Assembly: GCA_964510655.1 (NCBI GenBank)
Contig: CAZEAY010000001.1
Coordinates: 33,421-97,420 of the forward strand
Source: an uncultured Candidatus Saccharibacteria bacterium
Lineage (GTDB): Bacteria > Patescibacteriota > Minisyncoccia > Phycocordibacterales > XYD1-FULL-46-19
DNA: 64,000 nucleotides
Reading direction: 5' to 3'
The position numbers were made by a program, and so were the translations under genes. Below the pieces are notes generated by a model. That model was not told the origin of the DNA and searched no databases. It saw nothing but the letters and a program-made list of their open reading frames with translations. Position 1 is the stretch's first letter; each line of letters opens with the position of its first letter. This document shows positions 18,293-56,459 of this stretch, one piece after another.

Positions 18293-18300
18293 ATATTGCT

Positions 18301-18648
18301 TCCTATCTATAAGCCGAATTCTGTATCCGACCAAGGTCGGACGGCAGTTATTTATCTGGGCTGATTGTTGCCAATCAGCTCTAGCGACACGAATCGAAGG
18401 AAACCTTCGAAACACGGTCTTGCACTTAAGTAAGGGTTTAGCCGTTTCACTTCGAATGTTTCCATTCGAACTTACCCCGAAGGGTATTTTAAATCTTTCG
18501 ATTTAAAACGTCTCTGCTCGCACCTCGCGGATTGCTCCGGACGGGAATTACCCGCTACCTGGCTCCAAACTTGCGTTTGGAAGTGTTCGGACTTTCCTCT
18601 CTGACTTTCATCAGAGTAGCTGCCCAATAGGGAACTCCTTAATTATAA
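18301..18648 (-). ncRNA. rnpB: RNase P RNA (bacterial)
   Basis: The minus-strand reading contains the P4 core GAGGAAAGUCCGaac… and the 3' ACAGAAuuCGGCUUAuag element, with GC-rich stems in a region that lacks a credible ORF. Ends are approximate. Confidence 0.7.
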
Positions 18649-44111: not shown

Positions 44112-44511
44112 AGTCTTCTAAAAAAATAAAAATAAAAAACTCCGGAGGTGGAAAGCAGGCTGGGTGCTTTCTCTCCGGAGTTTGTGGCTGTTAAGCCGGA
44201 TCGCGACAGTGTCGCATACTGTCTCCTTTCAGAGACTTGGGCTTGTCTGGACCATGGGGTTGGTTACCCAGATCTCTTTGGTCTCAGCCTCGCCGGCGTT
44301 GGGCGATCAGGCCCCGGGCGACGCCGAGCGGCCGTCGTTCGCGCTGCGGATCGTGGAAATGATGTAAATGTTGGAAAAGTGATCGGTCGTCGAACCGCGG
44401 TTGTGATTGGTAAGCATGGCTTACCCCCTTCGATTGAATGTACAAGTACCTAAAGGTACTTCTCATAGTGTAGCATACTATAGATTTTTGTCAACTACTG
44501 GATATTAAATC

Positions 44512-44553
44512 TTTCTAAAGAAAAAAGAGAACCCGGAACGATGGTCGTTCCGG
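44512..44553 (-). terminator. intrinsic terminator of the GC-rich minus-strand ORF
   Basis: Hairpin cccggaacga-tggt-cgttccggg, followed on the minus strand by a T-rich run. Confidence 0.7.
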
Positions 44554-44579
44554 GCTAGCATGGTAGATGCTGGGGGGGT

Positions 44580-45056
44580 CTATTCCCCAACATCTACGTA
44601 GGGGATTTTCTTCTTGGTGGCCGACATCAGGAAGGTTATCACGTATTTCTCAAATTGTCTGTCTACCCGCCTGGCCAAAAATAGCAGGTGTAGATGTCTG
44701 TCGGCATCGGTCCAAGTACGTGGGTGGTCCAGGAAGTAACCCTGGTGACTGGTAAGCAGGCGATCTTTGGTCATTTCGTTGGCCGTGTCACCGCCTGACC
44801 TTACTTCGCTGAGTCGTTCCAACATGTCGATCAGCATATTCAGTAGGTCCATTTGATCATGAGACCCTGTCAGCACATTCTCGTGCTTCATTGACAGCTC
44901 CAAGTAGTCAGCGGTCAGGTGTGCCAGAGAGAGATCATCATGCGAAACTTTGGTCTCTTCTTCGCCTGTAAACATCCGTAGTCGGTCTACCAGTTGTTGG
45001 GTGGTTACTGACAACATTTGCGAACCCATACCAGCTAGCACCTTCTTCATGACCAT
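44580..45056 (-). CDS. hypothetical protein, GC-rich
   Basis: 158-aa ORF with its own terminator, about 46-50% GC by eye; no motif recognised. Confidence 0.4.
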   Translation of the reverse strand: MVMKKVLAGMGSQMLSVTTQQLVDRLRMFTGEEETKVSHDDLSLAHLTADYLELSMKHENVLTGSHDQMDLLNMLIDMLERLSEVRSGGDTANEMTKDRLLTSHQGYFLDHPRTWTDADRHLHLLFLARRVDRQFEKYVITFLMSATKKKIPYVDVGE

Positions 45057-46393: not shown

Positions 46394-46673
46394 AAAAAAA
46401 ACGCCTTAACCCACAAATTGTGAGCCCTGCCACCTAGTTGCGTCCCTAGAGCTAAATGCTTTAGCAAATCTTGTATAGACAACGTCAGTTAAGCAAGTGA
46501 TTAATAATAGATATATAGTATCAAAAATACTCTAAAAATACAAGGATTTCTCAAAGACCTCCTCTTTTTTTAAGAAATTTTATGAGCTTGACTTTTGAAT
46601 CCTCCTTAACTATACTATATATATAGTTAAATTTTATTAATTAATTTTAACTATAATAATTCATAATTAAAGT

Positions 46674-47837
46674 ATGAAATACACAGTTGGAAAGAAAATA
46701 AAAGCGACTAGTCCTCAAGGAGAGGCGTATTTGGCGTTTTTACCCGAACTAATAAATAAGGATTTTACTTGGGAGGATAAAAAAATAGATATACTGCTAG
46801 AGTCCGCTCGTGGCTGGCTTGGTGAACTAAATGCTTACTCGAAATTAATTCCTAACGTCGATTTTTTTATAGAGTCACATATCGCAAAAGAAGCAGAACA
46901 GTCTAGTCGAATTGAGGGGACAAAAACCACACTAGAAGAACTCTATCTTGATAAGGGTGATTTTGATGATCAGGAAAAAATAAATGATCAGGAAGAAGTG
47001 AAGAACTATATTAATGCATTAAATTATTCTATAAAAAATATTACAACTCCTGGCGAGATTCCACTTTCTACAAGACTTGTTTGTGGTGCTCATAAAATTT
47101 TACTTGATAATGTTCGAGGATATAAACGTCACCCTGGTGAGATAAGAAAAATACAAAATAAAATTGGAGGAAGCCAGGGTTCTCTTAAAGATGCTATCTT
47201 TATTCCTCCAACCCCAGAAATGGTTTCTGATCTTTTGAATGATTTGGAAAAATTTTGGCACAATAAAAATCTTGAAATTCCAGATCTGATAAAAGTCGCA
47301 TTGTCACATTATCAATTCGAAACAATACACCCATTTGAAGACGGAAATGGGAGAATCGGTCGTTTGATAATTATATTGCAACTCGTAACGTATGGGATGC
47401 TACAGAAACCAACATTGTACCTCTCTGATTATTTTGAGAAAAATAGATCGGCTTATTATGATGCTCTTTCTCGCGTACGAGAATCTGGGGACATGGAACA
47501 TTGGATAAAATTTTTCCTTGTTGGTGTCACTGAAACGGCCAAAAAAGGAAAAGAAACGTTAGAAAGTATCATTGATTTAAAAAAGAAATACGAAGATCTA
47601 ATCGATGGATATATGGGAGTTAAACAACAAAAACTTGGTAAGAAGTTGTTAAAATTCCTGTTTGCTAAGCCATTAGTAACAGCAAAAGATGTTGAGCAAA
47701 TGCTTGGAGTTACGAAACCAACAGCCACTGCTCTTGTAAACAAGCTGGCAGAAGCAAATATTTTAAAGGAGAGAACTGGATATAAAAGAAATCGAGTTTA
47801 TGCGCTCGATGAGTATTTAGCATTATTCAATAGTTAA
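46674..47837 (+). CDS. fic: Fic family protein (AMPylase-type), with an N-terminal domain and a C-terminal wHTH
   Basis: Canonical Fic motif HPFEDGNGRIGR and a candidate inhibitory SxxxEG motif (SSRIEG) in the N-terminal region. Confidence 0.85.
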   Translation: MKYTVGKKIKATSPQGEAYLAFLPELINKDFTWEDKKIDILLESARGWLGELNAYSKLIPNVDFFIESHIAKEAEQSSRIEGTKTTLEELYLDKGDFDDQEKINDQEEVKNYINALNYSIKNITTPGEIPLSTRLVCGAHKILLDNVRGYKRHPGEIRKIQNKIGGSQGSLKDAIFIPPTPEMVSDLLNDLEKFWHNKNLEIPDLIKVALSHYQFETIHPFEDGNGRIGRLIIILQLVTYGMLQKPTLYLSDYFEKNRSAYYDALSRVRESGDMEHWIKFFLVGVTETAKKGKETLESIIDLKKKYEDLIDGYMGVKQQKLGKKLLKFLFAKPLVTAKDVEQMLGVTKPTATALVNKLAEANILKERTGYKRNRVYALDEYLALFNS

Positions 47838-47845
47838 AATTATGT

Positions 47846-49603
47846 ATGGAAAATTTTAGTCATATAACATCAATGATCTGGAGTATAGCCGACATCTTGC
47901 GTGGCGGCTGGAAACAGCATGAATACCAGGACGTAATATTACCCTTGGTAGTTTTGAAACGTCTTGATTCTATCCTTGCAGACACTAAAGCTTCGGTCCT
48001 CGAGAAATACAACGAGTACAAAGGCAAAGTGAATGACCTTGACCCTATCTTGAAGAAGACCTCAGGCACAGCCTTCTACAATATCTCTGATTACGATTTC
48101 AAAACCATTCTTGGAGAACCAAAGCATCTCGCAAAGAACTTCAAGCAGTACATCAACGGGTACAGCAAGAATATCCAGGATATCTTTGAGAAGTTTGATT
48201 TCAGCAAACAGCTCGAGCGTCTCGAAGGTGGTGATCTCTTGTTTTACGTGATTCAGGAATTGAATAAAGTGGATTTGCACCCTTCAAAGGTAGATAACTA
48301 TCAAATGGGACACATCTTTGAAGAGCTTCTCCGAAAGTTTTCTGAAATGTCCAACGAAACCGCTGGAGAGCACTACACGCCAAGAGATGTGATCGGACTT
48401 ATGACCGAGATGCTCTTCTCGCCTGATAAGAAGGATCTCAAGAAACCTCATGTTATCAAAAAGATTTACGACCCTGCCTGTGGTACCGGCGGTATGCTTT
48501 CTGTTGCCAAGGATTACATTCTAGAAAACATAAACAAAGAAGCTGACATTTTCCTCTACGGACAGGAACTCAACTCGGTGACTTACGCTATGGCCAAGTC
48601 AGACATGCTTATCAAGGGCGATAACCCAGACCTTATTCGAGGCGGAGAAAAGGACCACTCAAAAGCAAGCACACTCGCTAACGATCAATTTTTTGCAGAA
48701 GTGTTTGATTATGGTCTATCAAATCCGCCCTACGGAGTTGATTGGAAGAAAGATAAAGATGCTGTTGAGCGTGAAGCCTCACGTGGATACGCTGGGCGAT
48801 TTGGTGCAGGCACTCCTCGCATCTCTGATGGACAGCTTTTATTCTTGCAGCACTTGATCTCAAAGATGAAGCCTGAGAAAGACGGTGGCTCACGTATAGC
48901 AATCGTCCACAACGGGTCCCCACTATTTACTGGTGATGTCGGTAGTGGAGAAAGCGAAATCCGAAGATGGATTCTTGAAAAGGATTTGCTCGAAGCAATC
49001 GTTGCATTGCCTGATCAGCTTTTCTATAACACAGGTATCAATACATATCTCTGGTTTGTCACCAACAGAAAATCAAAAGAACGAAAAGGTAAGGTCCAGC
49101 TCATTGATGCCCGTACCTTCTTTAAGAAGACTCGCAAAAGTCTTGGTAGCAAGCGACATGAGATTGATTCAGATCATAAAAAACAAATCTTGGATTTGTA
49201 TGAGAAGTTTGAGGAAAATGAATACTCAAAGATTTTCAAGACAACAGATTTTGCATACAGACAGATTCAAATTGAGCGTCCACTCAAGGATGAGAAGGGG
49301 AATTTTGTAAAAAACAAGAAAGGAGAAGTGGAGACGGATAAGTCACTTCGTGATCATGAAAATGTTCCATATGATATGGACATAAAAGAATACTTCAACA
49401 AAGAGGTAAAGCCATATGTGCCCGATGCATGGATCAATGAATCAGTCCGAGATCACAAAGACGGAAAGGTTGGCATTGTGGGCTATGAAATCCCATTCAC
49501 TCGCTACTTTTACAAATATGAGGCACCACGAAGCCTTGAAGAAATCGAGACTGATATAGAAAAGGTCGAGAACGAATTGCTCATTCTCCTAAAGCAACTT
49601 TAA
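47846..49603 (+). CDS. hsdM: type I restriction-modification system methyltransferase subunit HsdM
   Basis: N-terminal HsdM_N pattern and N6-MTase motifs (DPACGTGGML motif I, NPPYG motif IV). Confidence 0.9.
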   Translation: MENFSHITSMIWSIADILRGGWKQHEYQDVILPLVVLKRLDSILADTKASVLEKYNEYKGKVNDLDPILKKTSGTAFYNISDYDFKTILGEPKHLAKNFKQYINGYSKNIQDIFEKFDFSKQLERLEGGDLLFYVIQELNKVDLHPSKVDNYQMGHIFEELLRKFSEMSNETAGEHYTPRDVIGLMTEMLFSPDKKDLKKPHVIKKIYDPACGTGGMLSVAKDYILENINKEADIFLYGQELNSVTYAMAKSDMLIKGDNPDLIRGGEKDHSKASTLANDQFFAEVFDYGLSNPPYGVDWKKDKDAVEREASRGYAGRFGAGTPRISDGQLLFLQHLISKMKPEKDGGSRIAIVHNGSPLFTGDVGSGESEIRRWILEKDLLEAIVALPDQLFYNTGINTYLWFVTNRKSKERKGKVQLIDARTFFKKTRKSLGSKRHEIDSDHKKQILDLYEKFEENEYSKIFKTTDFAYRQIQIERPLKDEKGNFVKNKKGEVETDKSLRDHENVPYDMDIKEYFNKEVKPYVPDAWINESVRDHKDGKVGIVGYEIPFTRYFYKYEAPRSLEEIETDIEKVENELLILLKQL

Positions 49604-49608
49604 ATTAT

Positions 49609-50904
49609 ATGCAAACACTCAAGCTTACAAAAAAATATGAGAAATATCCTGAATATAAAGATTCGGGTGTTGAGTGGTTGGGTAATATTCCTGAAAATTG
49701 GAGTGTTTATAAAATGAAGACTTTAGGAAGTTTTTCAGCGAGCGGAATTGACAAAAAAATTAATGATAAAGAAATTCCAGTAAAGCTTCTTAATTACACT
49801 AATGTCTATGGAAATAAGGCGTTAACTATAGACGGTAAAACGGCTTTTGGAGAAACAACAACGACAAAGGACAAGATTACTGATTATTCAATAAAAAAAG
49901 GTGATATATATTTTACACCAAGCTCAGAGACAGAAAAGGATATTGGTGTATCTAGTGTTGCACTTGAGGATATCCCGGATGCGGTTTTTAGTTACCACCT
50001 AATAAGATTTAGGCCAAAAGCTGCAATTGATATTTCATTTAGTAAATATTTCACAAATAATTCGTGGGTTTTATCTCAGTTTTCATCGCTTTGCAATGGA
50101 ACAACAAGAATGGTGGTAAATAGAGATGATTTTAAAAATATAAACGTTGTTTTACCAACTAAAAAAGATCAAGAAAAAATTGCTGATTATCTTAATGAAA
50201 AAACTTCTGTTATTGATGAGATAATAGAAAAAAAAGAAAAGTTGATTGAGCTTTCGAAAGAAAAAAGAACCTCTGTAATCAATACCGTAATTTCTGAAGT
50301 AGTTGGAGAAAAAGGAAAACTAAAAAACTACATACAACTAAATCCTTCAAAAAAAGGAATTTCTGCAATTGGTCCTGAGGACGCGGTTTCCTTTGTTCCT
50401 ATGGAAGCAATCTCAGAACTTGGAGAACTACAAATACAAGAAAGAAAATACAAAGATGTAAGTAGTGGCTTCACCTACTTTAAAGATGGAGATGTTGTGC
50501 TTGCAAAAATAACTCCTTGCTATGAAAACGGTAAGGCGGGAGTAATTAGAGGACTGAAAAATGGATTTGGGTTTGGGACGACTGAATTCATGGTGCTTCG
50601 ACCAAGCAACAAGATTCTTGCTGATTACCTTTATTACGTAGTCTTTTCAGATAAATTCAGAAAGATGGGTGAAGTTGAGATGAGAGGAACAGCAGGGCAA
50701 AAACGAGTAACCTCATCATTTGCAATGAACTACGGACTATTTATTCCAGATATTAAAACTCAAGAAAAGATTGTGGTCGAGTTAAATAAAAAAATGAAGA
50801 TGTTTGATGTCGCTATAGCAAAAGTTGAAACTTCAATTTCATACCTCAAAGAATTTAAGACTTCCCTCATATCAAATGTTGTAACGGGAAAAATTAAAGT
50901 ATAA
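49609..50904 (+). CDS. hsdS: type I restriction-modification specificity subunit HsdS (two TRDs)
   Basis: Position in the operon, two repeated half-structures with conserved central and C-terminal coiled regions (…LIELSKEKRTSVI…, …KTSLISNVVTGKIKV), and very AT-rich composition. Confidence 0.8.
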   Translation: MQTLKLTKKYEKYPEYKDSGVEWLGNIPENWSVYKMKTLGSFSASGIDKKINDKEIPVKLLNYTNVYGNKALTIDGKTAFGETTTTKDKITDYSIKKGDIYFTPSSETEKDIGVSSVALEDIPDAVFSYHLIRFRPKAAIDISFSKYFTNNSWVLSQFSSLCNGTTRMVVNRDDFKNINVVLPTKKDQEKIADYLNEKTSVIDEIIEKKEKLIELSKEKRTSVINTVISEVVGEKGKLKNYIQLNPSKKGISAIGPEDAVSFVPMEAISELGELQIQERKYKDVSSGFTYFKDGDVVLAKITPCYENGKAGVIRGLKNGFGFGTTEFMVLRPSNKILADYLYYVVFSDKFRKMGEVEMRGTAGQKRVTSSFAMNYGLFIPDIKTQEKIVVELNKKMKMFDVAIAKVETSISYLKEFKTSLISNVVTGKIKV

Positions 50905-50908
50905 ATAT

Positions 50909-53050
50909 ATGATTAATAAAGTCTTAAAAATAAAGAATATAGGGAAATTCAAAAACCTTTGTTCAGTCAATGACGACCTGGCTTTTAAGACGTACACCCT
51001 GGTTTTTGGACCTAATAAACATGGAAAAACTACTTTTACATCAATACTCAAGTCTTTGAAGACGTCAGAGATTGATCACCTAATAGGACGAAAAACATTT
51101 GGATCAACAGCAAATGATAGCCAAGAGTATGAAATATTAATGAGTGATGGTTCTAAATATACATACAATTCTGGACTGAAAAATAAAGATATCGAAATAT
51201 TTGATAATGATTTCATAAATAGAAATGTTTTTTCTGGTGACAGTATTGATAAAAGCAATAGATCTAGTCTTTATAGCATCCTACTCGACAGTGCAAATGT
51301 AAAACTAAAGGAAGAGATAGACGAACTTGAGAGAAAACAAACAACTATCTCCACTGAAAAAACTGGAGCAAAAAATGCTATTGATAATTTTGATGACTTT
51401 ATAAAGTTAAATGCAACTGATGAAATAGCTGATATCGCAACAAAAATTGAAGAGAATAATAACAAGATTAAGCAATATAATAACCAAGCTCAATTAGACA
51501 TATTACGTAAGAAATCAAAGTTTCATTTTGATTTTGTGGCCTTTGAGGAGAAATTGAAACAAACCATTGATACCAAGCTTGAAAGTAAAATAAATGAACA
51601 CATAAAGAATAATCATAAAAACAATACAAAGAGTAAAGATTTTCTAAAAATTGGTACAGATTTGCTTGCCGATAGTAATGATTGTCCATTTTGTGGCCAA
51701 TCCTTAGACAACGTGACTGATCACATTACTGTCCTGAAGACTTTTTTCAGTGATACCTACAAAGAAATTCAAGAAAGTATTAATGAATCAATAAATCTTT
51801 TTAGTGAAATTGATATTGAAAAAGAGATCAATGCTTTCAAGGTTTGTGGATTAGAGTTTCCTAAATTAGATATTGTTAATTTGGGAGCTAACTTTTCAAC
51901 AGCGAAAGATAAAATAAAAGAGAAACAGACAGACTTATCAAAAGATATAAAAATCGGAGAAGATCAGGGTTATATCTCGTTTAAGAAAGAAATAATTAGC
52001 CTTAAGAAAGAAATTGATGATCTTACAACAAAAAGCCTAGATATAGTTGCTCTAGACAAAGAGACTTCGAGATTAAACCTCAACAAAGACAGATTTTCTG
52101 CTATTGGCATTGCAAAATTTAATACCTACAAAGAAAAAGAGAATGCATTTGAGGAAAACAAAAGAGTAATCAGTGAAAAAACCGATAAGTTAAAACTGGA
52201 CCTTAATACTCTTTTTAAAAAGCATCTTGAAAAGATAAATGATGTTCTTCGTATTTCAGGTGCAAATTTCAAACTAAAAAAACTCGATGCTAACACGAAC
52301 AGAAGCTTGAGAGATCATATGTGCGAATATAGTTTTGTTTTTGATAACACGCATGATGTAAGTGTAGAGGGTCAAGATAATACTCCCAATTTTAAAAATA
52401 CCTTAAGCGACTCTGATAAAAGAGTTCTCGCTTTCGCCTTTTTCGTAGCAAAAATAAAATCTGAAAACGATATCACTAATAAAATTATTGTATTAGATGA
52501 TCCTTTTACAAGTCTTGATGAAGACCGAAAAGACAGCATGATTAACCTTATTAAAGACCTTGGTTTTAAGCAGGTAATAATCTTGTCACATAGTAAAAGG
52601 TTTGTGGGTAGATGCTTTGAGTTGTTTCCAAGAGATGTAATGAAAACTCTAAAATTGCACTGCTCTGCAGCAAGCGGATCGCTTTTTGAGGTTATGGATG
52701 TCAAAAAAGAAATACTAGATACTGACATTGAAAAAGATCTTGCTTATATAAGAAATTCTATACACAAAAACATTAACCTAAAAGAAGCATGTCAAAAAGT
52801 TAGACTCTGCATTGAACAAATATTGAAAGAAAAATATTCAGATTTTATAAAGCCAGAAAATCTTGCAGGTAATGCATCAATTGGTACCTTTTTATTTGAT
52901 ATCGGAGCTAGGTGTCCAGCAAAAAAAGATATAGAAGGTGGGTATTGGCATGATGATCATCACGCACAAAATCCAACCAATACAGCTGATGACACGGAAA
53001 GGTTGAATAAACTTAAATACTTTATAGAAACCATTTTACCCACAATATAA
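50909..53050 (+). CDS. RloC/PrrC-like ABC-type ATPase with a coiled coil and CxxC zinc hook (AAA_13-like), embedded in the type I R-M operon; putative anticodon nuclease
   Basis: Walker A VFGPNKHGKTT. Long coiled-coil middle region carrying CPFCGQ. ABC signature-like LSDSDKR, Walker B IIVLDDPFTSLD and H-loop ILSHS. About 150-aa C-terminal domain with Rx3E (RLCIEQ) and HDDHH. Sits between hsdS and hsdR, as prrC and rloC do. Confidence 0.5.
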   Translation: MINKVLKIKNIGKFKNLCSVNDDLAFKTYTLVFGPNKHGKTTFTSILKSLKTSEIDHLIGRKTFGSTANDSQEYEILMSDGSKYTYNSGLKNKDIEIFDNDFINRNVFSGDSIDKSNRSSLYSILLDSANVKLKEEIDELERKQTTISTEKTGAKNAIDNFDDFIKLNATDEIADIATKIEENNNKIKQYNNQAQLDILRKKSKFHFDFVAFEEKLKQTIDTKLESKINEHIKNNHKNNTKSKDFLKIGTDLLADSNDCPFCGQSLDNVTDHITVLKTFFSDTYKEIQESINESINLFSEIDIEKEINAFKVCGLEFPKLDIVNLGANFSTAKDKIKEKQTDLSKDIKIGEDQGYISFKKEIISLKKEIDDLTTKSLDIVALDKETSRLNLNKDRFSAIGIAKFNTYKEKENAFEENKRVISEKTDKLKLDLNTLFKKHLEKINDVLRISGANFKLKKLDANTNRSLRDHMCEYSFVFDNTHDVSVEGQDNTPNFKNTLSDSDKRVLAFAFFVAKIKSENDITNKIIVLDDPFTSLDEDRKDSMINLIKDLGFKQVIILSHSKRFVGRCFELFPRDVMKTLKLHCSAASGSLFEVMDVKKEILDTDIEKDLAYIRNSIHKNINLKEACQKVRLCIEQILKEKYSDFIKPENLAGNASIGTFLFDIGARCPAKKDIEGGYWHDDHHAQNPTNTADDTERLNKLKYFIETILPTI

Positions 53051-53054
53051 ACAT

Positions 53055-56021
53055 ATGACAACAAAAACAAACACAAAAGAATCAGGATTTGAAGAATTTA
53101 TTGAGCAAGAGCTCAAGAGTCTTCATTCATACCGGACTCGATCAACCTCTTCATACAACAAAGAGCTTTGCATGGATACCGAGTTGGTCCTCGAGTTTAT
53201 TCATACAACACAGAAAGATAGTTGGGATAAGTTGGTTGAACAATATGGTGGCGATGTTGCCAATCGATTTTTGGCTAGACTAGATGAAGAGCTTCTTTCT
53301 CGTGGACTTCTCAGTGTCCTGCGAGAAGGTGTGAAGGATAGAGGTGTAACTATTCAACTTGCGTATCTCAAACCAGAAAATGATAAAAACCCCGAGACAC
53401 TTGCCGACTACGCAGGGAATATCTTGAGCGTAATGCGACAGGTCAAATATAGTGTCAAGAACGAGAACTCTATCGACATGGTTATATTTGTAAACGGTCT
53501 TCCTCTCTTTACCTCTGAACTTAAGAATCAATTCACCAGACAGAATGTTATCAATGCAATTTCACAATACAGAACTGATCGTGATCAGAAAGAAAAGTTG
53601 CTTGGATTTAAGAGATGCCTCACACACTTTGCGGTGGATACCGAACAGGTATACATGACCACTAAACTCTCGGGACTTACCACCTACTTCTTGCCATTCA
53701 ACAAAGGCAATAACGGATCATCTGGTAACCCTGAAGCACCGAAAGGAAAATACAAAACTTATTATCTCTGGGAAGAAATCTGGTCCAAGGATAGTATCTT
53801 TGACCTGATTGGTAATTTCATACAAGATATAACAGAAGAAAAAGAAGACAAGAATGGAAGGCGACATAGGGATGAAAAAATCATCTTCCCTCGATATCAT
53901 CAATTGGAAACAGTTAAGAGAATTGTTGAAGATGCCAAAGCTTATGGTGCGGGTAAGAATCATCTCATTCAGCACAGTGCTGGGTCTGGGAAGAGTAATA
54001 CTATTGCTTGGACCGCTCATCGATTAGCGGGACTTCATAATATTGGAGGTAAAAACGTCTTTGACGGGGTAATTGTTGTAACCGATCGACGAGTACTTGA
54101 TAGACAATTATCTGAGGCGGTGGACAGTTTTAGTGCGACCGTTGGCCTCGTTAAACACGCAGATAACTCAGCACAACTTGCTGATTATTTAAGAAATGGC
54201 ATCAAAATTATCACAACAACGCTCCAAAAGTTTCCTGTTATTGTCGATACAGTAGAAGCTCTTGAAGGTAGAAAGTTTGCAGTGATTATCGATGAGGCTC
54301 ATTCATCACAATCAGGTGAATCGGCAGCCGACCTGCGCCAGGTCCTCACACTTGATGAAGCTGAAAAAGAAAGTCAGGAAGAAGAGAAAGCATTTAAGAC
54401 GATTGAAGATCAGATCGTCGAACGTATGAAGGCTCGAAAAGTAGCATCTCCAAACCTGTCATTCTTTGCCTTTACTGCAACACCAAAACAAAAGACTCTT
54501 GAGCTTTTCGGTACCGAAGATGCGGTAACAGGTAAATTCGGTCCCTTCTCCCTCTATTCAATGAAGCAAGCCATCGAAGAGAAGTTTATTCTCGATGTGC
54601 TTAAGAATTACACAACTTACGAAACTTACTTCGGACTTTTGAAGAAGGTTGAGGATGACCCAGAATTCGACAAGAAAAAGGCTCAGCGACTTATGGTTGG
54701 ATATGTTGAGCGACATGAGCATGCTATCGATAAGAAGGTGGCCATTATGGTTGAACACTTCGAGGAAAAGATCGCCTCACTTATTAACGGCAAGGCAAAA
54801 GCTATGGTGGTGACCAAGTCTCGACTTCATGCGGTCCGTTATAAGATTGCATTTGATAAGTATCTAAAAGAAAAAGGATATGCACACAAAGCCCTCGTAG
54901 CGTTCTCTGGAACGGTTAAGGATGTTGATACCAAGCTTGAATACACCGAGGGCCAGATGAACAAGGTGCCTGAGAGTCAGACCGCTGAAGAGTTCAAAAA
55001 TGATAACTATAAGTTCCTAATCGTTGCCGAGAAGTTCCAGACTGGATTCGACCAGCCACTTCTCTCGGTAATGTATGTAGATAAGAAACTTGGTGGTGTT
55101 GGTGCGGTCCAGACTTTGTCTCGACTTAATCGAACCACATATAACAAAGAAGAAACCTTCGTTCTTGATTTCGTAAACCAGACTGATGATATCAAGGAAG
55201 CCTTCCAACCTTACTACACAACTACTGTTCTCTCAGAAGCGACAGATCCAAACATCCTGCATGATCTTGAGCGAGATGTGCGTGGTTTCAAGTTCTTCAC
55301 TGATTTTGAGGTTAATGGCTTTATAGACGAGCTTTATTCAAGAGCAACTCCTGACAAGCTCAATTATATTATCGATGGTGTAGTCTCTCGCATCAATGAA
55401 GAGAACCTCACTGAAGAAGAAATGGAGAGTTTCAAGTCTACGGTATTTGATTATCTCAAAAAATACGCATTCATCTCACAGATTGTAACCTTCGAAGATC
55501 CTCAGCTGGAAAAGTTGTTCATATTCTTAAAGTATCTGATTAGAAAGCTTCCTAAGCGTGAAAACCCACTACCATATGAGGTCCTTCAGGCAATAGATAT
55601 GGAAACATACCGAGTGGAAAAGAAAGGTGAAATGCATCTTCAGCTCGAAAATGCTGAAGGTCTTATTGAGCCTATGGGCGGTGGTGATGCCAAAAGTTCA
55701 TCTGAAGATGAAAGAGATGCTCTGTCTCGCATCATCAAAGAAGTAAATGAAAGATACGGTACCAACTTCAATGACGGTGACCGAGTGATCCTTAATGACT
55801 TGAGTAAGCGACTACTTGAAAGCGAGATCCTTCAGGGTTCAGTAATGAACAACAGCAAAGATGCCGCTAAGTTAAAATTCGATCAGCTCTTCCAGGACGA
55901 GCTCGTGAGCGTGCTTGATAAGCATTTTAGCTTGTATCAAAAGTTGGACCAGAGTCCAGAGCTCAAGAAGTTTGTGCAAGAGCGTGTGTTCGAATTTGTG
56001 GTTAAGAAAATGAAAAAATAA
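53055..56021 (+). CDS. hsdR: type I restriction enzyme R subunit HsdR
   Basis: N-terminal PD-(D/E)xK nuclease motif (DMVIFVNGLPLFTSELK). SF2 helicase motifs (SAGSGKS, DEAH in VIIDEAHSSQ). Confidence 0.9.
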   Translation: MTTKTNTKESGFEEFIEQELKSLHSYRTRSTSSYNKELCMDTELVLEFIHTTQKDSWDKLVEQYGGDVANRFLARLDEELLSRGLLSVLREGVKDRGVTIQLAYLKPENDKNPETLADYAGNILSVMRQVKYSVKNENSIDMVIFVNGLPLFTSELKNQFTRQNVINAISQYRTDRDQKEKLLGFKRCLTHFAVDTEQVYMTTKLSGLTTYFLPFNKGNNGSSGNPEAPKGKYKTYYLWEEIWSKDSIFDLIGNFIQDITEEKEDKNGRRHRDEKIIFPRYHQLETVKRIVEDAKAYGAGKNHLIQHSAGSGKSNTIAWTAHRLAGLHNIGGKNVFDGVIVVTDRRVLDRQLSEAVDSFSATVGLVKHADNSAQLADYLRNGIKIITTTLQKFPVIVDTVEALEGRKFAVIIDEAHSSQSGESAADLRQVLTLDEAEKESQEEEKAFKTIEDQIVERMKARKVASPNLSFFAFTATPKQKTLELFGTEDAVTGKFGPFSLYSMKQAIEEKFILDVLKNYTTYETYFGLLKKVEDDPEFDKKKAQRLMVGYVERHEHAIDKKVAIMVEHFEEKIASLINGKAKAMVVTKSRLHAVRYKIAFDKYLKEKGYAHKALVAFSGTVKDVDTKLEYTEGQMNKVPESQTAEEFKNDNYKFLIVAEKFQTGFDQPLLSVMYVDKKLGGVGAVQTLSRLNRTTYNKEETFVLDFVNQTDDIKEAFQPYYTTTVLSEATDPNILHDLERDVRGFKFFTDFEVNGFIDELYSRATPDKLNYIIDGVVSRINEENLTEEEMESFKSTVFDYLKKYAFISQIVTFEDPQLEKLFIFLKYLIRKLPKRENPLPYEVLQAIDMETYRVEKKGEMHLQLENAEGLIEPMGGGDAKSSSEDERDALSRIIKEVNERYGTNFNDGDRVILNDLSKRLLESEILQGSVMNNSKDAAKLKFDQLFQDELVSVLDKHFSLYQKLDQSPELKKFVQERVFEFVVKKMKK

Positions 56022-56024
56022 GTG

Positions 56025-56459
56025 ATGGAAAATCTTTCTGAAAAAGTTGTTGAAAAAGCTATTTTGAAACACCTTGCCTTAAAAGGATGGGATTATAATA
56101 TTAAAACTAAGGGACTTCATGAGCATGGTTGTGATATTGTTGTAACTAGCTCGAAAAATAAAAATAAAGCGACAAGATTTTTGATAGAATGTAAGGGTAG
56201 GTCATATGCAAAATCTGCAAAGTCTATTGCTGAAACTAATTTTTTGTTTGCTCTTGGTCAGTTGATTACTAGAATGAGTGTAATTGCAAGACATGCTTAT
56301 AAATATGGTCTTGGATTGCCAGAAGAAAGTGCAAAAAAGGCGTTACACAGGATTCCATGGCAGGTTGCAAGACAGTTATGTCTGTATATTTTTTCTGTAG
56401 ATGATATGGGTAGAGTGACAGAGTATTCCCCTAGGGATTTTAAGAAAACTAATAAATAA
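56025..56459 (+). CDS. small PD-(D/E)xK nuclease-fold protein (Mrr-cat/YraN-like core) abutting the hsdR stop
   Basis: Candidate catalytic D (HGCDIVV) about 17 residues before an ExK (IECKG). Its ATG lies 3 nt after the hsdR TAA. Confidence 0.4.
   Translation: MENLSEKVVEKAILKHLALKGWDYNIKTKGLHEHGCDIVVTSSKNKNKATRFLIECKGRSYAKSAKSIAETNFLFALGQLITRMSVIARHAYKYGLGLPEESAKKALHRIPWQVARQLCLYIFSVDDMGRVTEYSPRDFKKTNK

Follow-up and report, generated by a model that had tools for sequence, protein, structure and literature searches.

A probable RloC-family anticodon nuclease gene in the PrrC position of a type I restriction-modification operon on a Patescibacteria-type chromosome

Background

The anticodon nucleases RloC and PrrC both couple an ABC-type NTPase head to a C-terminal RNase domain, and their nuclease domains have been assigned to the HEPN superfamily (PMC3710099). 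Here we describe a probable divergent member of the RloC family, a protein of 713 amino acids (aa) encoded within a 64,000-nucleotide stretch of DNA from an uncultured Candidatus Saccharibacteria bacterium (contig CAZEAY010000001.1 of assembly GCA_964510655.1, positions 33,421 to 97,420; hereafter the window). Its gene is wedged between hsdS and hsdR of a type I restriction-modification (R-M) operon, and an initial sequence-only reading of this region had proposed an RloC/PrrC-type ATPase with an uncharacterised effector domain.

RloC takes its name from inserts in the type I R-M loci of C. jejuni (PMC2610378, PMC3458546) and has been defined (Davidov and Kaufmann 2008, PMC2610378) as a protein of 658-897 aa in which the motifs of an ABC-ATPase are combined with a CX2C zinc hook borne on a coiled-coil insert and with a C-proximal Arg-X3-Glu-X36-52-His triad. 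In GkaRloC, from Geobacillus kaustophilus, the triad residues R692, E696 and H737 are each needed for activity (PMC2610378), and further landmarks are K44, C291 and D572 (PMC3458546). This anticodon nuclease is activated by ATP hydrolysis and DNA and is deregulated by mutation of the zinc hook (PMC3458546). EcoPrrC, from E. coli, is encoded in the prr locus, where the genes run hsdM-hsdS-prrC-hsdR, and is latent on EcoprrI until a phage peptide that inhibits restriction releases its activity (PMC3014915). Mutagenesis of EcoPrrC has shown R349 and N352 to be essential besides R320, E324 and H356; together with H356 these two residues form the HEPN R-x2-N-x3-H motif, and they are reported to be conserved in RloC (PMC3025547). 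RloC genes are R-M-linked in 8/73 cases (PMC2610378), and whether Hsd complexes mask RloC-type proteins in cis is a point left open by the RloC literature. Neighbourhoods that combine R-M genes, RloC-like ABC-HEPN proteins and Fic/Doc or RhuM have already been tabulated (Anantharaman et al. 2013, PMC3710099).

Assignment of the protein to the RloC family

The open reading frame (ORF; 50909..53050, + strand) has an ATG start and, in the ORF list, a stop codon ending at 53050. It starts 4 nt past the hsdS stop and ends 4 nt short of the hsdR start, as the fourth gene in a compact co-directional operon with intergenic gaps of 0-8 nt. Pfam and PADLOC searches confirm both neighbours, and the order of the genes matches that of the prr locus (PMC3014915).

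With Pfam AAA_13 (PF13166) the protein scores 88.2 bits, where the gathering score is 36 (E 7.5e-25), a match that goes far beyond chance. Among the defence models of PADLOC it scores best with the candidate family PDC-S06 (model PDLC04895, E 4.8e-51), in an alignment that covers only part of the model and extends into the start of the C-terminal tail, R632 and E636 included. PDC-S06 is an uncharacterised candidate label, which the papers found give only in lists; the thirteen models that carry it appear to cover AAA_13/RloC-like proteins. NCBIfam yielded nothing specific, its RecF C-terminal match (1.5e-07) lying far below the cutoff, and the PADLOC PrrC model did not match at E <= 0.1 with either the whole protein or the tail. 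The 75 relatives found in a large protein database are mostly full length at 713-790 aa, and JGI has automatically labelled several of these homologues "wobble nucleotide-excising tRNase", the name under which RloC appears in COG.

Set against the published definition of RloC, the 713-aa protein contains ABC-ATPase motifs that are invariant across 47 homologues, a helical insert (residues 126-450) with the pair C259-x2-C262, and the triad R632-x3-E636-x48-H685, and its length falls within the reported range. GkaRloC (COG4694; PF13166) likewise has an ABC head split by a coiled-coil/CxxC insert and followed by a C-terminal nuclease domain with Arg-x3-Glu...His, and its published positions K44, C291, D572 and R692/E696/H737 occur in the same order as K40, C259, D530 and R632/E636/H685 here. 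In contrast, GkaRloC is longer (~800 aa), its Glu-His spacing is 40 rather than 48, and the triad histidine is preceded by Ser where the window protein has His; the latter also lacks the arginine of the HEPN Rx4-6H motif and the accompanying Asn. EcoPrrC resembles the window protein in its operon slot (hsdM-hsdS-X-hsdR), in combining an ABC NTPase with a C-terminal HEPN RNase, in its Arg-Glu-His triad and, by analogy, in the expected logic of a latent RNase guarded by a type I enzyme. PrrC proteins are nevertheless only 341-416 aa long and have no coiled-coil/zinc-hook insert, which occupies 325 aa of the 713 here, and neither a PrrC box nor a LARP-like motif was recognised in the window protein.

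Family models, motif conservation, structure prediction and fold searches all support the family call. The gene probably codes for a divergent RloC anticodon nuclease and takes, within a type I R-M operon on a Patescibacteria-type chromosome, the place that prrC has in the prr locus. As such the protein is a remote but ordinary example of RloC, in a bacterium of the candidate phyla radiation (CPR) and in a known type of defence neighbourhood.

ATPase head and zinc-hook insert

Seven motifs had been recognised in the initial reading, and each is present once and in the order given: GPNKHGKTT (residues 34-42), CPFCGQ (259-264), LSDSDKR (499-505), VLDDPFTSLD (528-537), ILSHS (558-562), RLCIEQ (632-637) and YWHDDHH (679-685). 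In an alignment of 47 sequences with 21-86% identity, N36, K40, T42, C259, C262, S500, D530, D531, D537, H561, R632 and E636 are invariant, and H685 is conserved at >=90%.

The N-lobe of the ATPase head (50909..51283, + strand; Walker A motif at nt 51008-51034) contains the invariant residues N36, K40 and T42 and is modelled as a beta-rich lobe of residues 1-125, with Foldseek matches to SMC/Rad50 heads. The C-lobe (52259..52633, + strand) carries the signature-like LSDSDKR (52403-52423), the Walker B/D-loop VLDDPFTSLD (52490-52519) and the H-loop ILSHS (52580-52594), again with invariant residues, and shows weak SbcC_Walker_B and RecF C-terminal matches. Between the lobes lies a helical (coiled-coil) insert (51284..52258, + strand) of ~325 aa, which replaces the ~450 aa of coiled coil in the sequence-only reading; the larger figure corresponds to the whole stretch that separates Walker A from the signature. 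The invariant pair C259/C262 (nt 51683-51694) falls near the middle of the insert, and almost all full-length relatives from genomes have one CxxC near this position.

The full-length AlphaFold model (mean predicted local distance difference test score, pLDDT, 88.2; predicted template-modelling score, pTM, 0.63) consists of the beta-rich N-lobe, a long segmented helical insert, the C-lobe and an all-helical tail, and has the CxxC in a loop flanked by helices 239-252 and 267-279. When this model was compared with the PDB using Foldseek, the heads and coiled coils of SMC, cohesin and condensin proteins, Rad50, RecN, JetC and Lamassu LmuB were recovered, with E values down to 7e-9. The matches returned did not include an RloC or PrrC structure, and PDB sequence searches were also without a match. 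The Rad50/SMC-like ABC-ATPase head is intact in its catalytic motifs, and the CxxC in the helical insert is a predicted zinc hook. The proposal of an RloC/PrrC-type, Rad50-like zinc-hook ATPase is in this respect well founded.

C-terminal HEPN domain

The C-terminal domain (52634..53047, + strand) adopts a HEPN fold, is modelled at a pLDDT of 88.5 and contains a putative anticodon-nuclease triad formed by R632 and E636 (52802-52816) together with H685 in the histidine cluster YWHDDHH (52943-52963). In a tail-only alignment (A2; residues 575-713 with 33 homologous tails) R632, E636 and H685 are the sole invariant columns, a pattern expected from purifying selection on a catalytic site. In addition, E636-x3-K640 fits the "Ex3[KR]" feature described for HEPN domains (PMC3710099).

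The tail is related to that of a wider set of RloC-like proteins. A hidden Markov model (HMM) of the close-clade tails matched the C-terminal tail in 70/81 relatives from fetched loci, always in terminal position; among those matched are proteins from Paenibacillus, 771-795 aa long (E 3e-5 to 1e-3). An exhaustive search of 1.84 billion representatives with the tail profile returned 1,227 proteins at E <= 1e-3, with 676 at E <= 1e-10; among the 150 matches listed the tail is always C-terminal and the proteins are mostly of ~760 aa. Comparison by hhalign of the tail profile with a relative whose tail has the form R-x3-N-x3-SH (P0073) gave 84% probability (E 7e-6 over 128 columns), with the Arg/Glu pair aligned on its counterpart. 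Group-against-group comparison of the tails gave 97-99% probability, a score that is inflated because the segments include the end of the ATPase head. When the tails were scanned with PADLOC only PDLC04895 matched, in 6/34 members, with no named nuclease family.

The C-terminal domain is accordingly neither uncharacterised nor a different nuclease, as the sequence-only reading had suggested, since it has a HEPN fold with the triad that defines RloC and a tail homologous to that of the wider RloC-like family; a novel effector domain was rejected on the grounds of fold and tail homology. That reading was right to note that the domain is unlike PrrC in sequence, given that the PADLOC PrrC model does not match and that equivalents of R349 and N352 are absent.

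Complete at 482 aa, the relative P0090 has a Walker A motif and the same HEPN tail (INDFSKVYHH), and its helical insert is far shorter and has no CxxC. It gives the RloC-like family a "short" form that is PrrC-like in architecture and that may be an evolutionary intermediate. Other short matches to the tail profile were rejected as PrrC-sized proteins; they are mostly 5'-truncated fragments, and only P0090 is genuinely short.

The variant active site and its interpretation

Several observations weigh against the assignment to the RloC anticodon nucleases. The tail alone matches nothing in Pfam, NCBIfam or PDB sequence searches. Its alignment with the tail of P0075 is weak (hhalign E 0.008), and P0075 is the one relative with a tail that the PADLOC PrrC model recognises, by way of the R320/E324 region. 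Neither the arginine of the HEPN Rx4-6H motif nor the Asn that follows it (the equivalents of EcoPrrC R349 and N352) is present in the 713-aa protein, in which H685 is preceded by G677-G678-Y679-W680-H681-D682-D683-H684 with no basic residue <=11 positions upstream. The active-site loop is also the part of the structure model with the lowest confidence, and for this protein and its clade tRNA as the substrate rests on analogy. With regard to PrrC itself, the sequence connection of the tail is only an indirect one through P0075, the most GkaRloC-like relative identified, which combines an E-x39-SH spacing with the PrrC-model match and shows weak sequence similarity to the window protein; the PrrC model touches relatives of the majority type only at the ATPase lobe.

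The variant HEPN loop is a real departure from the PrrC-type active site. Sister sub-clades have the loops NDYQENHH or DNWHEDMHD. Seven positions before H685 there is a Gly in the window protein and Asn or Asp in these sub-clades, and at position -4 either His or Gln occurs. In most of the wider family N-D-Y-x-[KR]-[KR]-[FY]-H-H stands in place of the canonical arginine motif, and R-x2-3-N-x3-H is kept only in P0069, P0072, P0073, P0074 and P0075. The arginine is missing from the greater part of the wider RloC-like family too, so its loss is widespread in this branch and is not specific to the gene or clade.

It is possible, though doubtful, that the clade constitutes a distinct, obligately R-M-embedded RloC-like branch centred on Patescibacteria, which would combine the zinc-hook/ATPase switch of RloC with PrrC-style masking by Hsd and in which a His-rich loop (WHDDHH, NDYQENHH or DNWHEDMHD) would replace the Rx4-6H arginine. 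If so, the catalytic arrangement could differ, for example through His/His acid-base catalysis or zinc-modulated activity, and the RNA target might be other than that of the wobble excision of tRNA-Lys/Glu.

We consider it unlikely that the same architecture carries a HEPN domain that has been re-tooled or is inactive, in which case the protein might cleave another RNA (mRNA or rRNA) or bind RNA or nucleotides only, and would serve mainly, instead of as an anticodon nuclease, as a sensor of DNA ends or of the R-M state that modulates restriction, as in restriction alleviation. Such a reading gains from the replacement of the canonical arginine and Asn, which are essential in PrrC (PMC3025547), by the His-rich loop WHDDHH, from the existence of non-catalytic binders among HEPN domains (PMC3710099), and from the low pLDDT of the active-site loop. 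It is difficult to reconcile with the invariance of the triad residues, and of no others in the tail, across very divergent sequences, with the loss of GkaRloC activity on mutation of the corresponding residues (PMC2610378), and with the absence of the arginine from most of the wider RloC-like family, which has N-D-Y-x3-4-H-H at this site. An active RloC-type nuclease remains our preferred interpretation.

Linkage to restriction-modification genes among relatives

Linkage of the close clade to type I or type III R-M genes is near-obligate, 10/11 loci with readable context being R-M-embedded, whereas RloC genes in general are rarely found in this setting (8/73). Writing X for the RloC-like gene and M, S and R for the type I subunits, the window has the order Fic-M-S-X-R. 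Related arrangements are Fic-M-DUF2130-S-X-R (P0002), DUF2130-S-X-R (P0004), M-X (P0014), M-X-orf-S-R (P0024), AbiE-M-RhuM-X-orf-R (P0013) and M-X-S-Fic-R-RhuM (P0032); HsdM adjoins X in L002 and L003, and a type III system is represented by Mod-Res-X (P0046). The exception is P0047, which has no R-M link and stands alone beside secY.

At the P0047 locus (L091, 7001-9202) the gene lies between secY, at the end of a ribosomal-protein operon, and BipA/TypA, the translation of the locus not being exact to P0047. The operons of the two closest relatives contain an extra DUF2130 gene between hsdM and hsdS (L082, 5518-6720; L088, 1838-3040) that the window does not have. Composite defence islands occur at L089 and L090, where relatives inside type I operons repeatedly have RhuM (Virulence_RhuM), AbiEi/AbiEii pairs and Fic genes as neighbours; Fic genes also recur directly adjoining relatives.

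In a broader sample of diverse genome loci, type I genes were found nearby in ~12/80 by tblastn, a lower bound because the queries were only the Hsd proteins of this window. This proportion agrees with the published 8/73 for RloC.

The operon and its surroundings

A consensus scan located a single strong promoter-like site ahead of Fic on the + strand, TTGACT-17-TATACT (46588..46616; 10/12 matches), which by its position upstream of the first gene may serve the operon. The first gene (46674..47837, + strand) encodes a SoFic-like protein of the Fic/DOC family with a C-terminal winged helix-turn-helix (Pfam Fic_N 4e-22 and Fic 4e-18; PADLOC SoFic 1e-116). It is followed on the same strand by hsdM, encoding the methyltransferase (47846..49603; Pfam HsdM_N and N6_Mtase; PADLOC MTase_I, 830 bits), and by hsdS, encoding a specificity subunit with two target-recognition domains (49609..50904; two stretches of Pfam Methylase_S; PADLOC Specificity_I 1e-72). 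Downstream of the RloC-like gene is hsdR, for the restriction subunit (53055..56021; Pfam HSDR_N, SWI2_SNF2/ResIII and T1R_D3-like; PADLOC REase_I 1e-40). This is the same kind of neighbourhood as those tabulated for ABC-HEPN proteins (R-M subunits, ABC-HEPN and Fic/DOC; PMC3710099), and the window adds a further example from a Patescibacteria-type genome.

A 145-aa ORF with a GTG start (56022..56459, + strand) begins at the first base after the hsdR stop. Sub-threshold Pfam matches (MTES_1575 0.0019; Mrr_cat 0.0025) and a D...ECK motif suggest a possible PD-(D/E)XK (Mrr_cat-like) protein, whose membership of the system is uncertain. The ORF was not found beside any relative examined, and it may for this reason be a locus-specific extra nuclease. 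GC content at third codon positions (GC3) is chromosome-like in hsdM (0.46) and hsdR (0.41) and low in Fic (0.26), hsdS (0.25), the RloC-like gene (0.26) and the 145-aa ORF (0.23). This mosaic base composition across the hsd operon (46674-56459) suggests that its accessory and variable genes have been swapped in from donors of lower GC.

Two further readings of the RloC-like gene bear on this gene context. Proteins such as Rad50/SbcC and the SMC ATPases Lamassu LmuB and Wadjet JetC share the head fold with an emerging coiled coil and, in Rad50, a CxxC hook; they differ in having no HEPN tail, in relying on separate nuclease or kleisin partners and in that the coiled coil of the window protein is much shorter. 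It could be argued that the gene product is the SMC-like sensor in an ABC-ATPase defence system, of Lamassu type or another (LmuB-like, AbiL or PARIS AriA-like), and acts through a separate effector, as weak PADLOC matches to LmuB (3.6e-15) and PbeC and the Foldseek matches to Lamassu LmuB and JetC might indicate. This is very unlikely, as the LmuB matches fall short of that to PDC-S06 by more than 30 orders of magnitude, the operon has no LmuA/LmuC-like gene and no AriB or TOPRIM partner, and the protein has a HEPN effector of its own and a CxxC hook, a trait of RloC and Rad50. A housekeeping DNA-repair ATPase of the Rad50/SbcC/RecN/RecF type, present in the hsd operon by chance, would account for the Rad50/SMC/RecN-like fold and the weak RecF match, yet it is extremely unlikely in view of the lack of an SbcD/Mre11 partner, the absence of HEPN tails from Rad50/SbcC (PMC2610378), the AT-richness of the gene relative to hsdM and hsdR, its patchy phyletic distribution and its consistent R-M linkage.

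The remainder of the window is ordinary chromosome, with genes for RNR, MurJ, LepA, aminoacyl-tRNA synthetases, FtsZ/FtsA, RNase P and tRNAs. The named relatives of LepA, at ~70% identity, are Candidatus Vogelbacteria, Paceibacterota and Parcubacteria, which identifies the host as a Patescibacteria (CPR) bacterium and renders plausible the premise of the sequence-only reading that the genome is reduced. The seven tRNA genes in the window all have different anticodons, none of them for Lys, and a gene for bacterial class A RNase P RNA is located at 18294-18635 (- strand; 124 bits). A GC-rich gap (44112-44580) separates pth from the next gene, within a 44-46 kb bin of 44% GC compared with 39% for the window. 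The translation of its ORF (44148-44453) is unlike a real protein, and for that reason the gap may hold an unannotated RNA; an Rfam scan of 43.9-45.3 kb at lax thresholds found nothing exceeding gathering scores.

Proposed mechanism

By analogy with GkaRloC and EcoPrrC, the 713-aa protein is probably an abortive-infection RNase. Its latency would be maintained through the zinc-hook/ATPase switch that it carries, through its association with the Hsd complex, or through the two together. The trigger could be a phage that escapes or inactivates restriction or that generates DNA ends; this would lead to DNA-stimulated ATP hydrolysis in the head and so to release of the HEPN domains, probably as a dimer. 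The freed domains may then cut the anticodon loops of tRNA, the substrate suggested by analogy, or another RNA of the translation apparatus, by metal-independent transesterification; translation would halt and the infection would be aborted, providing a back-up when the surrounding restriction system fails. The upstream Fic gene is probably a second toxin arm.

Implications

Modest interest attaches to the variant HEPN loop, to the near-obligate R-M linkage and to the fact that the host belongs to the CPR, none of which overturns current understanding. The variant site could help to show which residues anticodon-nuclease chemistry cannot do without, and the near-obligate linkage makes this clade convenient for asking whether Hsd complexes mask RloC-type proteins in cis, as they do PrrC. 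In a bacterium that is ultrasmall and probably dependent on a host, the locus provides a well-supported case of a predicted abortive-infection RNase linked with type I restriction, and indicates that such lineages, despite genome reduction, keep a layered defence, made up here of Fic, R-M and an RloC-like protein.

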